From: Mobula birostris
Taxonomy: Eukaryota
Reading direction: 5' to 3'
Assembly (NCBI RefSeq): GCF_030028105.1
Contig: NC_092390.1
Location: forward strand, 46,296,777 to 46,360,776
Length of the DNA: 64,000 nt
Both the position numbers and the translations under genes were made by a program. Under the pieces are notes generated by a model. It had not been told where the DNA came from. It did no database searches and saw only the letters and a program-made list of their open reading frames with translations. Numbering within the stretch: the stretch's first letter is position 1; each line of letters opens with the position of its first letter. Below, piece by piece: positions 58,095-64,000 of this stretch.

Positions 58095-58290
58095 GAAGAC
58101 CAAAGACATGAGGGTTGGTAGGTTAACTGCCCACTGTAAATTGTCCCTGGGGTGGGGGGGGGCGGGTTTGGAGAGCTGATGAGAATGTAGGGAGAATAAA
58201 ATTGTAAATGGGTGGTTGATAGTTGTCATAGATTCAGCGGACCGAAGAACCTGTTTCAGAACTGTATGTCTGTCTGAGTCTTTGACTCAC
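58095..58290 (+). mobile_element. 5'-truncated HE1-type SINE
   Basis: ccaaagacatgagggttggtaggttaactgcccactgtaaattgtccc...ccgaagaacctgtttc. Confidence 0.7.
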
Positions 58291-58300
58291 TGACCAACAG

Positions 58301-58778
58301 TTTACAAGGATGTTGCCGGGACTTGAGAAACTGAGTTACAGAGAAAGGTTGAATAGGTTAGGACTTTATTCCCTGGAGCGTAGAAGAATGAGGGGAGATT
58401 TGATAGAGGTATATAAAATTATGGTGGGTATAGATAGAGTGAATGCAAGCAGGCTTTTTCCACTGAGGCCGGGGGAGAAAAAACCAGAGGACATGGGTTA
58501 AGGGTGAAGGGAGAAAAGTTTAAAGGGAATATTAGAGGGGGCTTCTTCACACAGAGAGTGGTGGGAGTGTGGAATGAGCTGCCAGGTGAAGTGGTAAATG
58601 CGGGCTCACTTTTAACATTTAAGAAAAACTTGGACAGGTACATGGTTGAGAGGTGTATGGAGGGATATGATCCAGGTGCAGGTCAGTGGGACGAGGCAGA
58701 AAAATGGTTCGGCACAGCCAAGAAGGGCCAAAAGGCTTGATTCTGTGCTGTAATGTTCTATGGTTCTATGGTTCTATA
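58301..58778 (+). mobile_element. Young CR1 3' end
   Basis: MLPGLEKLSYRERLNRLGLYSLERRRMRGDLIEVYKIM...FFTQRVVGVWNELP; (TTCTATGG)n tail; right flank agtttaaggatgttg mirrors the 5' junction agtttacaaggatgttg. Confidence 0.95.
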
Positions 58779-58984
58779 GTTTAAGGATGTTGAAGTTCTA
58801 ATATCAGTCCCATGACATTTCATTTTGGACAATACAGCCTGGATTCTGCTCACCTCAATGAAACTTTGGAAAGACTCCACTTCCATCTACTTTTCCAAGT
58901 TCCCCCTTTACACAACCCTTTTCTTATAATGAGCTTCCGGAAGATTTCCTGCCTTCTAGATGAGGTGCATAGGATGGTGGGAGA

Positions 58985-59217
58985 ACACAACAGTAGAGTG
59001 GTGAGCACAGTGCTTTACAGTACAGGTAAACCAGTTCATTTCCCACCACAGCCTATCGGAAGTTTCGTACGTTCTTCCCATGACCTCATCGGTTTTCTCC
59101 AGGTGCTCCAGTTTCCTCCTACGTTCCAATGACCTACCAGTTGGTAGGTTATTTGGATATTGTAATTTGTCCCATGATTAGGCTAAAATTGGGAAATTGC
59201 TGGGCAGTGTGGCTCAA
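58985..59217 (+). mobile_element. HE1-like SINE, 3'-truncated by the myosin/LTR element
   Basis: Head and core match 62470; stops at ctgggcagtgtggctc; a tail-like tatgttaataaataaaaa reappears at 61021-61039. Confidence 0.8.
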
Positions 59218-59225
59218 ATTGCAGG

Positions 59226-59942
59226 TCATTGTGCCTTCAGCAGCTGAAGGTGAACCTGGAGCTGGAAACCCAGGTCGCCGATCTGAATGAGAGACTGCTA
59301 AGGAAGGAGATTTGCACCACTGAACTGAATGCTCAGAAGTGCAGACTGGAGACTGTGTATCGCAATCTCGGCACAAACATTGAAGAATTGGAGTCCATGC
59401 TCGTCAAAGTGGGGACGGAGAAACAGAATTCAGAGCAGAAACAGCAGAATTAAACCAGGGAGATGGAACAATAACGAGCCTTTGGAAGGATAAGCAGAAA
59501 CTGGAGAAATTGATCCACAACAGATTGGAAGACTTGCAAGTTAGGGAAGACAAAGAAAGCTATCTGACTGAGACCAACAAAAAACTGAGAGCATGGAGAG
59601 GAGAGTATGAACACATTTCAGAAGAGGTGAAGCAATTGCGGACAGATCTCGGAAGAGGGAAGTGAAAGCTTGAAGGAGACCTGAAGATGACCATTGACAG
59701 CCTAAATGAAATGGAAAAATTGAAAGTTGACTTGGAAGAGGTCATTAAGAAGAAAGAGCTGGAGATAAGTTCAGTGAACACAAAACTGGAGGATGAACAA
59801 TCTTTAACTGCTACTCTTCAGAGGAAGATTAAGAAATATCAGACCCGGAACTGGAGGAGGCCGAAAAGGCTGCAGAAGCAGCCCAGGCCAAATGCTCCAG
59901 CTTGGAGAAAACTAAACAGCAGCTACAAATCGAGGAAAAGGA
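59226..59942 (+). pseudogene. MYH16: Intronless, internally deleted myosin heavy chain rod fragment (MYH16-like retrocopy)
   Basis: LKVNLELETQVADLNERL...LESMLVKVGTEKQ / ITSLWKDKQKLEKL...LEDLQVREDK...[62 protein letters not shown] / [29 protein letters not shown]. The DLKMTID.LNEME..K.DLEEV.KK..LEI.SVN.K.EDEQSL signature is closest to MYH16 as I recall it. Two frameshifts and premature stops (59451-59453, 59663-59665). Confidence 0.8.
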
Positions 59943-60422
59943 GAAGAATACGGATTCAAAGGATGATGAGATGGAGGTGTGGTACATGCTGCCTTTCCCT
60001 AACTTCCCCTTGTTTGAGGAAGAGACTCCTGGCCCTTCTCCTGCTGAGTCAGGTGAGGTGGGGGGGGGGGGGTCTAGCTGTGGGAAGCCTGGGTTACTGC
60101 AGGACCCTGAAAGAGAGACTGTGGGGCCTGAACACGAGGGGGGCATGAGTGATAGATTGAGAGAGGATTCGGCAAGCAGACTCGAAGTATCCCCAGTAGT
60201 ATCCGAGCCTGAAGGGTTAGGTGAGGGGGTACGGAAGTCTCAGGGGATTAGGAAACTCTCGTATAGGTTGGCCTATGTAGCGCCTGGGGAACAGGGTGTG
60301 AGGTCTATTGTTTGGGGAGCTATGTCACTGTTGGTAACTGGATTGTGTTTTTGTGCTTGCAGGAAGGGTTGGCGAATTATTTCGACGTCATGAGGGCATG
60401 ACTAAATTTGGTGGGGGGAGAA
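59943..60422 (+). mobile_element. Gypsy-type LTR retrotransposon: pol C-terminal tail and polypurine tract
   Basis: Low-complexity acidic/Pro-rich tail ending [16 protein letters not shown] (cf. RRS.R.R..P.RL.Y after Gypsy integrase); stop at 60391-60393; PPT GGTGGGGGGAGAA at 60410-60422. Confidence 0.8.
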
Positions 60423-61020
60423 TATAAGGGTTTCTCTCTTATGTTAACTGCTAAGGCTAATAAAATGGCTTCTCTGTAATGTTAACTGCTGAGGTAATAG
60501 GTTCTCTGTAGCAGCATGTTTGGGTTAAAGGTAGAGATAACAGGACTTTGGCATTCAGTTGCTAACCAATGGACGAGATGTTATTCTTTCTTGTTTGTGT
60601 GAAAGCTGTTGGTTTTCGCGGGCTTTGAGAGAAGGCGCGAGGGGAATGAACAGAGGAGGCGCGACTTGAGGAGTCGGTGGGCTGTCCGACCCTCTGTGCT
60701 CCAGTGGGAGCTGAGGGTCGACGACGATCGAAGGAGGAATCAGCAAAGGAAAACCGTGAGCTCCAATGAATTGTGGACGAACTGATTAAATGAATTCTTG
60801 GTGCCTTTTATTTTATATTTTGTTCTCTCCTAGTCTCATAGTCTAAGTAAGAGTTATAAAATCTTACTTGTTTAACCATATATTGTTTATTATTTCGGGG
60901 TACTGATTTGACACAGGGGACATTTCACGCAGCATCCACCCAAACGGGAGTTCTAAAGTTTGGCCGGGCAAGGAGGTTACCACCCCCGAGATCATACCAC
61001 TAGGCAAAGTAAGTGTTACA
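60423..61020 (+). mobile_element. 3' LTR (~598 nt)
   Basis: Starts immediately after the PPT with TATAAG (likely TGTAAG) and ends GTTACA; internal tandem duplication atgttaactgct...ttctctgta (60441-60510); CCAAT box; CpG-rich. Confidence 0.85.
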
Positions 61021-61096: not shown

Positions 61097-61944
61097 TCAT
61101 CATCGTAGCTTGTCACACCAGACAGCCAGCCACTCTAGTGTTGTTTGATTGATGTTGAGCAGGTCAGTGTCAGCGAAATCAGGTGAGGGTGGGCAGTTGC
61201 GTAGAACGTGTTCAATGTTCTGCACCCTTTCACCACACTCACAAGATTCGCTGGTCTTTAAACCCCACTTCACCATATTGTCTCCCGTCCTACAAACTCC
61301 CGCTTGCGTTCTGTTGAGAGTGCACCACTTCCGTCTGTCAAGCAGTGCCCCGTCTGGTAACATTTCTGTGGGGTCTTGCACTGTATTGTTTGGTGAGGTT
61401 CTGGCTTCTGTTTGTTGTCGGAGGTCAATCCTGTGTGTTTGGGGGGATGTTCCGTGCGGTAGTTCCTCCACTGTAGCAAAGCTTTTCCTTGACTTTAGGC
61501 GGTTGGAAACTGGCACATGATGGTGTAGTGGGTGCCATGGATCCGAGTTCTGTTTACCTTTTTCAATTTTTGTTGTAGTGTGTCTTCTGATCTCTGGGGG
61601 AGCAATGCCTGCAAGTCTGTAAATGATGTTAGTGGGTGTGGGGCGCAGTGTACCCGTGATTATTCAGCAGGCTTCATTAAGCAACGGGTCTATTTTCTTT
61701 GCATGGGCTGATCTGCCCCACACAGGTGCACAGTATTCTGCAGCTGCATTAGCAGAGTGCTAGGGCAGTTGATCTAAGTGTGTGAGCATTAGCTCCCCAT
61801 TTCGTGCCTGTTTATTTTTTCAAGAGAGAATTGCGAGAGCTAACTTTCCCTTGGCATTTTTGGATGTGGATGGCAAATGAGTGCATCCTATCCAGTGTCA
61901 CGCCCAGGTAAATTGGAGTCGGATGTAATTTGGAGTTGTAAAAG
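61097..61944 (-). mobile_element. Vingi (Ingi-clade) LINE, 3' part
   Basis: PIYLGVTLDR...SSRNSLLKK...KWGANAHTLRSTALAL...AAEYCAPVW...LAGIAPPEIRR...RLKSRKSF...WCTLNR...KWG...CECG..QNIEHVLRNC (C-terminal CCHC); (GAT)n tail; flanking near-repeat GACAAGGGAATA / GACAAAGGAACA. Confidence 0.88.
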
Positions 61945-63324: not shown

Positions 63325-63360
63325 CATCCTGATGAAGGGTCTCAGCCCGAAACTTTGACT
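63325..63360 (+). ncRNA. Hammerhead core fragment from a Penelope terminus
   Basis: CTGATGA (63329)-AGGGTCTCAGCCC-GAAAC intact, but the cleavage triplet is TTT instead of GTC and stem I is mismatched. Confidence 0.6.
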
Positions 63361-63941
63361 CCAATGCCATATTCAGGTTTGTTGATGAAACCACCATCAT
63401 AGGATTAATCAAAGGTGCTGACAAATCAGTATATTGGAGCGAAATTAAAAATCTGGTTGAGTGGTGCCGCAACAACAACCTCTTACTCAACGTCAGCATG
63501 ACCAAGGCGCTGATTATTGACTTGAGGAGGAGGAAGCTCGAGGACAATGAGCTAGTTCTCATTGAAGGATCAGAAGTGGAGAGGGTCAGCAGCTTTAACT
63601 TTTTCTGTGTTACCATTTCAGAGGACCTGCCCTGGGCTTAACACGTAAATGTAATTACAAAGAAAGCACTGCAGTGTTTCTACTTCCTTAGGAGTTTTTG
63701 AAGATTCGGCATGACATCTAAAACTTTGACAAACTTCTATCGATGTGTAGTGAAAAGTATATTGACTGGCTGCAACACAGCCTGGTATGGAAAACCAATG
63801 CCCTTGAATGGAAAATCCTCCAAAAGGTAGTGGATACAGTCCAGTCCATCATGGGTAAAGCCCACTCTTCTATTGAGCACATCTACATAGGACATCATTG
63901 CAGGAAAGCAACATCCATCATCAGGGACTCTCACCACCCAG
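63359..63941 (+). mobile_element. Rex1/Babar LINE, RT/thumb region
   Basis: SNAIFRFVDETTIIGLIKGADKSVYWSEIKNLVEWCRNNNLLLNVSMTKALIIDLRR...VERVSSF...LTGCNTAWYG...ATSIIRDSHHP. Confidence 0.92.
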
Positions 63942-63944
63942 ATT

Positions 63945-64000
63945 TTGCTCAGATTGGAGGATTGTGACTAGTGGTGTCCCACAAGGATCTGTTCTGGGAC
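63945..64000 (+). mobile_element. CR1 RT fragment running off the window
   Basis: SDWRIVTSGVPQGSVLG. Confidence 0.85.

Follow-up and report, generated by a model that had tools for sequence, protein, structure and literature searches.

A non-autonomous Ty3/Gypsy element family carrying spliced myosin rod sequence in the genome of the ray Mobula birostris

In retroviral oncogene transduction, spliced host sequence is fused in frame to gag-pol within a helper-dependent genome, which is one likeness to the ray element described here.

The capture of host mRNA by LTR retrotransposons is already known in yeast, plants, flies and vertebrates (PMC5131818; maize Bs1 in PMC7264820), and the LTR-mediated retrocopies of Tan et al. 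2016 are attributed to template switching guided by microsimilarity (PMC5131818). In that study, such retrocopies are young or few, with 15 polymorphic cases in flies (nine of which account for 18 insertion sites), 5 cases in zebrafish, 4 in chicken, 8 in mouse and 3 in human. For the mouse IAP 1-delta-1 element, a review reports a gag-pol fusion that works in cis (PMC6466679).

Here we compare these systems with a locus in Mobula birostris, located in a stretch of 64,000 nucleotides (contig NC_092390.1, positions 46,296,777 to 46,360,776 of the forward strand, hereafter the window). In our account, which we hold with high confidence as a whole, the locus is the dead 3′ half of a non-autonomous Ty3/Gypsy element with exons of a MYH16-sister gene in its pol frame.

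The window copy and its donor gene

An earlier note made from the window sequence had proposed ~700 nt of myosin rod sequence directly upstream of a Gypsy pol tail, a polypurine tract (PPT) and an LTR, and the rod sequence proved real. Fish skeletal myosin residues 940-1149 align to the window cargo in tblastn (E 5e-32), with residues 1432-1466 forming a separate second block, and window positions 59238-59943 share 90.5% DNA identity over 706 nt with exons of a single gene of the host itself (C28:18.02-18.20 Mb). Pfam profiles searched against the window's short frames detected no myosin family, and the homology came via PDB and tblastn.

Read on the plus strand, the cargo starts with a remnant of donor exon 1 from the S2 coiled coil (59226..59426; 90% identical to C28:18017137-18017325, the alignment being firm from 59238 and weak from ~59226), followed by donor exon 2 (59427..59518), which is joined to exon 1 across a 38,847-nt intron and contains a 13-nt private deletion and a stop at 59451-59453. 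Donor exon 3 (59519..59605) is joined to exon 2 across a 19,459-nt intron, exon 4 (59606..59751), with a stop at 59663-59665, to exon 3 across a 28,628-nt intron, and exon 5 (59752..59842), 96% identical to the donor, to exon 4 across a 3,001-nt intron. A stub of exon 6 (59843..59854) with a 7-nt private deletion ends at an 843-nt deletion common to the copies of subfamily A, beyond which lies part of donor exon 12 from the LMM region (59855..59943; 90% identical to C28:18196244-18196332), whose last 12 nt (59932-59943) form the 3′ microhomology between cargo and element in the junction alignment.

The window cargo is intronless across five donor introns of 3-39 kb each, with exons joined exactly at the splice sites (junctions after 59426, 59518, 59605, 59751 and 59842), so the proposal that it derives from mRNA stands, whereas the MYH7 junctions named in its support are not the first donor junctions, which fall in the protein between EKQ and NSE, LIQ and NRL, and RGE and SEY (the next two donor exon ends fall between IK/K and KEL and between EYQ and ARV). 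Likewise, the claim of continuous reading holds with respect to introns but not otherwise, as 843 nt of the mRNA are absent at 59854/59855, leaving a cargo of two pieces, and the frame is broken by two stops (59451, 59663) and by two frameshifts; the private deletions measure 13 nt and 7 nt.

Downstream of the cargo, the C-terminal tail of a Ty3/Gypsy pol (59944..60393, plus strand) starts at an integrase-deletion junction, is in frame with the last exon of the cargo, ends in TGA and shares 66% protein identity with the tail of an integrase-bearing copy (E 3e-31). It is followed on the same strand by the PPT (60410..60422), which is read directly from the sequence and recurs as the same motif before the 3′ LTR of two-LTR copies, and by a 598-nt 3′ LTR (60423..61020) with TA...CA ends (TG start in other copies). 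The assignment of 59944-61020 to an LTR retrotransposon was thereby borne out, as was the lack of RT, RNase H and integrase between cargo and LTR; full-length copies keep remnants of RT and RNase H upstream of the cargo. The 5′ end of the window cargo is lost, being fused to a 3′-truncated SINE-like repeat at ~59218-59237, and a search for the missing 5′ half detected no gag, RT or second LTR in the window or within 10 kb on either side. The window copy has neither the 5′ capture junction nor a 5′ LTR, and thus not both of the element ends needed for reading a target site duplication (TSD); it is dead and without its 5′ half.

Other repeats surround the element. The SINE-like repeat at 58981-59218, with its 3′ end cut and fused to the cargo, belongs to one of the window's repeat families (D1/D3) and is presumably a SINE. 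Directly behind the LTR, a 187-codon frame at 61100-61663 on the minus strand with a weak zf-RVT match (E 1e-4, below the cut-off) reads as the 3′ end of a non-LTR retrotransposon. Decayed LINE RT fragments, which we take to be CR1/L2-like, lie at 58286-58740 and 63336-63967 on the plus strand, and a related piece sits inserted in the pol tail of one other copy (L048).

Among the myosin genes found by exon search, a C28 locus at 18.017 Mb shows ~90% identity to the cargo. The other candidates, namely the fast-skeletal cluster (C28:18.8-19.1 Mb), a gene on C3 and the MYH16 gene on C11, were rejected as donors, being only 62-79% alike in short pieces. Twelve donor exons distributed over 179 kb join into 1,626 nt with an open frame free of stops, separated by introns of 2.1-38.8 kb, so a parental gene lacking introns at these places, which the earlier note had named as a way for its proposal to fail, is not what was found. 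In all copies the donor exons are joined exactly at AG/GT, and the longest cargo copies comprise donor exons 1-8, 11 nt from the end of exon 11 and a portion of exon 12. The donor locus has the appearance of an intact rod gene of at least 250 kb (C28:17,974,913-18,226,289), ~0.6 Mb from the fast-skeletal myosin cluster, and in this assembly the splice acceptor of its exon 1 is an unusual GAG.

The named best matches of one donor exon were mostly myosin-16, and a rod tree of 26 rows and 540 columns places the donor, on a long branch (0.5), as sister to the full set of 11 MYH16 rows (100/99), with the C11 gene nesting with shark MYH16. The label MYH16-like thus holds as a likeness, but the donor would be a sister paralog of MYH16, the masticatory myosin of vertebrates, while the MYH16 ortholog is the other gene, on C11; this placement is not certain, as the long branch may overstate the exclusion of the donor from the MYH16 clade. 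Donor and C11 gene share the EKQ exon end and the donor rod groups with MYH16, yet the donor lies outside the clade of the 11 MYH16 rows and is ~57-60% identical to them, and donor exon 1 compared with protein representatives gave no close ortholog (best 51-55%). An HMM search detected no motor exon within 140 kb upstream of donor exon 1 (a control gene gave 11 exons in 10 kb), a result to be read in view of the huge introns, which may place the motor further off, or of its divergence; two genome-wide searches likewise detected no motor exons for the donor, with the same introns and possible divergence in play.

Contigs from sequencing runs X1, X7 and X8 cross donor exon junctions and continue into donor sequence that is absent from every element, and therefore a spliced donor transcript evidently exists. 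In run X8, one spliced contig links donor exon 1 to an acidic exon that is not myosin (end near 18,014,045). The donor may be a myosin-rod gene without a head or an isoform from an internal promoter, and its germ-line expression is an assumption of our account. Long stop-bearing matches to Myosin_tail_1 occur elsewhere in the genome (C16:85.15 Mb, C17:52.87 Mb, C9:73.02 Mb, C8:50.53 Mb, and C6:2.10 and 2.23 Mb) and are likely processed pseudogenes of other myosin II genes.

Structure of the family and order of events

Searching the 4.0-Gb genome with the cargo returned 1,056 first-look candidates, and all 40 that were scored were true matches, with the same pol tail following the cargo in 30 of 30 loci inspected; the LTR returned 5,858 first-look candidates, of which the 40 scored all matched at 80-91%. 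A 20-mer of donor exon 4, which detects 25 of the 29 sampled copies that cover it, has 644 genome matches at no more than one mismatch, one of them the donor gene itself, compared with a single match for a control. These counts agree with the suggestion that a non-autonomous cargo family had been amplified, the cargo being multi-copy and always beside the same pol tail. The adjacency of a single myosin fragment and an LTR by chance, or an assembly artefact, would fit the truncated state of the window copy and nothing else, and it is refuted by the recurrence of the cargo at 40 of 40 scored loci and of its pol tail at 30 of 30, and by the presence of the chimera both in further species and in independent runs, which leave such a coincidence a negligible probability.

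LTRs are paired, wholly or partially, in 16 of 20 copies fetched with 10 kb of flank, and two-LTR myosin copies measure 3.8-5.9 kb. An exact 4-bp TSD flanks 8 of the 10 myosin copies with both ends, one further copy having 3 of 4 matching positions and one none, and the primer binding site (PBS) after the 5′ LTR is complementary to the 3′ end of tRNA-Pro genes called by ARAGORN. An initial tRNA search had returned Cys, Lys and Thr genes only, and a targeted motif then found tRNA-Pro. Contig C17 holds over half of the 89 tRNA-Pro-like 3′ motif matches, together with tRNA arrays. Pfam detected PNMA, which we take to be a Ty3/Gypsy-type gag, as well as RVT_1 and RT_RNaseH in the myosin copies as remnants upstream of the cargo, with RNase H sequence extending up to the cargo, so the full-length structure sought by the earlier note (5′ LTR, PBS, gag, TSD) is present in other copies. 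Given the retained integrase-deletion junction and the deletions in RT and RNase H, the myosin copies are not autonomous. In one copy, the myosin element L042 (C38:21.63-21.64 Mb), the tail holds a second, unrelated insertion, ~3 kb long and with RNase H.

With the RNase H end as query, relatives were found whose likeness to the myosin elements stops where the cargo starts. Four of eight such myosin-free kin contain the integrase region (rve and Integrase_H2C2 by Pfam in two), domains found in myosin-free kin only, and four have the integrase deleted at a short repeat. The 6.9-kb kin L115/L119/L120 show the order PNMA, RVT_1, RT_RNaseH, Integrase_H2C2, rve, without env. The myosin elements carry the integrase-deletion junction directly behind the cargo, and therefore the integrase deletion preceded the capture, the integrase-deleted variant having existed first.

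In this variant, the cargo, a cDNA running from donor exon 1 to exon 12, replaced ~55 nt of the element, with both joins in frame and both mRNA ends cut inside the coding region, as expected of a partial spliced mRNA. Element and donor agree in 10 of 11 letters at the 5′ switch, read in copies other than the window copy, and in 10 of 12 at the 3′ switch, the chance of such matches per random site pair being 2e-5 and 7e-5, respectively. The junction alignment revealed no poly(A), no TSD of the cargo's own and no duplication around it at either end, confirming that LTR-element sequence rather than a poly(A) tail bounds the cargo. The capture was likely a single event, a double template switch of reverse transcriptase onto a co-packaged mRNA in a germ-line particle, after which the myosin element was likely copied in trans by integrase-bearing relatives to >600 sites. 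The earlier note had spoken of a host muscle mRNA captured by template switching; spliced host cDNA and microhomology at both switches agree with it, the switch itself being inferred, while the word muscle is without support, no motor exons having been found. An alternative source of the cargo is a processed pseudogene made by a LINE and then inserted into a genomic copy of the element or recombined with it at the DNA level. The window is rich in LINE remnants, and other myosin genes appear to have left processed pseudogenes in the genome, but the missing poly(A) and duplication, the replaced ~55 nt, the microhomology at both ends and the truncation of both mRNA ends match instead the template-switch pattern of LTR-mediated retrocopies (PMC5131818), and we regard a LINE origin as very improbable.

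Our preferred account, capture by template switching, probably involved one origin of the cargo. In each of the 33 distinct aligned copies (L076, which duplicates L075, was left out), the cargo either misses at least the middle 630 nt of the mRNA or stops short of it, and none (0/33) holds it, so a single origin is likely. This count does not separate one 1.6-kb capture followed by deletion from a jump within the capture round. Later nested deletions of 630, 843, 72, 105, 126, 27 and 9 nt, together with three that span pol and cargo, define the subfamilies, the 843-nt deletion of subfamily A occurring in 5 of the 33 copies.

The LTR-LTR K2P distance ranges from 0.044 to 0.148 with a median of 0.082 (15 pairs, in a sample biased to copies most like the window), and therefore all examined myosin copies are old, and all are decayed. 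Motif counts for the myosin-free kin, 529 for the linker lost to the cargo and 786 for a 20-mer of the integrase, show the myosin lineage to be of about the same abundance.

Reading frame and cargo residues

Natural open frames of 371-498 codons run through cargo and tail in several copies, and one myosin-containing frame of 375 codons in a copy other than the window copy matches MYH7 residues 913-1088 in PDB (E 6e-16). The selection check proposed by the earlier note was run across copies, where changes common to at least 70% of a subfamily have a pN/pS of 0.52-0.72 and private changes one of 0.50-0.74, as under neutrality; the element-lineage changes (66 N : 24 S) do not differ from singletons (Fisher p 0.69), and subfamily B shares two prolines at places where the host rod has none. 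Since shared and private pN/pS are equal and a subfamily has the two prolines in common, the cargo residues are evidently not conserved, and their amino acids appear to drift neutrally.

These data bear on whether the captured coiled coil is a working polyprotein module, an oligomerisation unit or particle tether that gave the lineage an advantage. The sense, in-frame fusion at both ends, the long natural open frames and the parity in number between the myosin copies (644) and their kin would suit such a module, but its residues are free of purifying selection, the cargo has been whittled down in every subfamily, subfamily B tolerates two prolines in the coil, and integrase-deleted kin without myosin have spread as well (4 of the 8 fetched), all of which makes a working coiled coil improbable. 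A bolder combination is a long shot, if marginally less so: that the in-frame coiled coil, acting in cis as an oligomeriser or tether, let an integrase-less element match the copy number of its autonomous helpers for tens of millions of years, and that the donor is an undescribed, possibly headless, germ-line-expressed sister gene of MYH16.

In contrast to the residues, the frame itself seems to have been kept. All 13 lineage-shared junctions are in frame (seven cargo deletions, three deletions of pol and cargo, the two capture joins and the integrase deletion), whereas private small indels are in frame in 3 of 26 cases, and the pattern suggests a need for an open polyprotein frame. A microhomology null gives an in-frame probability of 0.37-0.72 per event and a rough joint p of 3e-4 to 2e-3, for junctions that are not wholly independent and were counted after the fact. 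Splits of 78+48, 99 and 201+429 were counted as alignment variants of 126, 105 and 630, and a 92-nt deletion with a 3-nt insertion that 3 copies seemed to share did not enter the count, since it was RNase H sequence misaligned to exon 1. Shared stops number 0 of 66 compared with 17 of 342 (Fisher p 0.087, not significant), a 1-nt insertion common to 2 copies of different subfamilies counts against a kept frame, and deletion sizes in gag, PR and RT, compared with decayed integrase-bearing copies, were inconsistent and gave no frame pattern.

The same capture could have yielded an open frame as a mere by-product of microhomologies in codon-periodic coiled-coil DNA, with no selection for translation. 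Microhomology pairs inside the cargo are in frame at a share of 0.48-0.72, well above one third, the cargo amino acids evolve neutrally and the stop test is not significant, as this explanation would have it; for the six junctions with pol sequence the null falls to 0.37-0.55, and yet 13 of 13 are in frame. We give this explanation a real but clearly minor chance. The reading that we favour, with modest confidence and for this step alone, is that transmitted lineages needed an uninterrupted gag-pol frame translated in cis, much as is reported for mouse IAP 1-delta-1, with the amino acids of the cargo irrelevant.

Distribution in rays and comparison with known systems

RefSeq models from Mobula birostris (closest, 77-87%), M. 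hypostoma, Hypanus sabinus and, in part, Hemitrygon akajei show this chimera too, including the 630-nt deletion and, in most cases, the tail. The capture is likely older than the separation of devil rays and stingrays, dated to the Late Cretaceous, and horizontal transfer is compatible with the distribution as well. Within the mobulids, two lineages separated ~20 Mya according to the main text of a genome preprint (10.64898/2026.10.27.761883), in which neither 'MYH' nor 'myosin' occurs. Contigs in runs X1 and X2, whose RNA nature is our guess, bridge cargo and tail, and no contig bridging cargo and element was among the matches listed for runs X7 and X8, which is no proof of absence.

In current annotations, 14 RefSeq models (P0131-P0141, P0143-P0145) from the same four species are or contain element copies, under names that include myosin-16-like, putative MYH16, myosin heavy chain-like and glutathione S-transferase theta-2 isoform X1. 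Model P0141 has the cargo inside, and its remainder resembles another protein type, which we take to be SDF2. Element copies inflate myosin gene counts in ray annotations, some being mistaken for real myosin genes, and the cargo itself points to an overlooked MYH16-sister gene that would have been transcribed in the germ line or early embryo.

A literature search that covered sources other than Repbase/Dfam, most subscription journals and preprint supplements found no publication on a myosin-carrying family in rays. Among the described systems close to it are the LTR-mediated retrocopies, in which a partial spliced mRNA likewise replaces part of the internal ORF in sense orientation, with microsimilarity at both switch points and both LTRs kept, and which can go through further rounds as non-autonomous elements (PMC5131818). 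Unlike these cases, the ray capture founded 640+ copies with subfamilies, is common to two ray families and has its pre-capture intermediate still in the genome. Maize Bs1 is also an LTR retrotransposon with spliced host sequence transduced into its internal region (PMC7264820, PMC5131818), but it is a plant element with three donor genes, whereas the ray element is a vertebrate Ty3/Gypsy with one donor and no sign of a host function. Mouse IAP 1-delta-1, a very successful element, shares the non-autonomous state and an in-frame internal deletion, and its fusion ORF is reported to be cis-acting (PMC6466679); it is an ERV rather than a Ty3/Gypsy element, has no host cargo, and its cis action was tested, while that of the ray element is inferred. 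Compared with retroviral oncogene transduction, the ray element lacks env, shows no sign of selection on its cargo protein, and is endogenous and extinct.

Taking these comparisons together, what appears to be new is not the mechanism but its outcome. A single vertebrate capture grew into a large family of 640+ copies rather than a single retrocopy, and one genome preserves the autonomous parent, the deleted intermediate, the intron-bearing donor, both switch points and the later subfamilies, a rare case among vertebrates. The frame-keeping signature, the previously unremarked MYH16-sister donor and the false myosin models in ray annotations also appear to be new, and with hundreds of dated copies it can be tested directly whether selection on non-autonomous LTR elements maintains an open frame regardless of its protein sequence.
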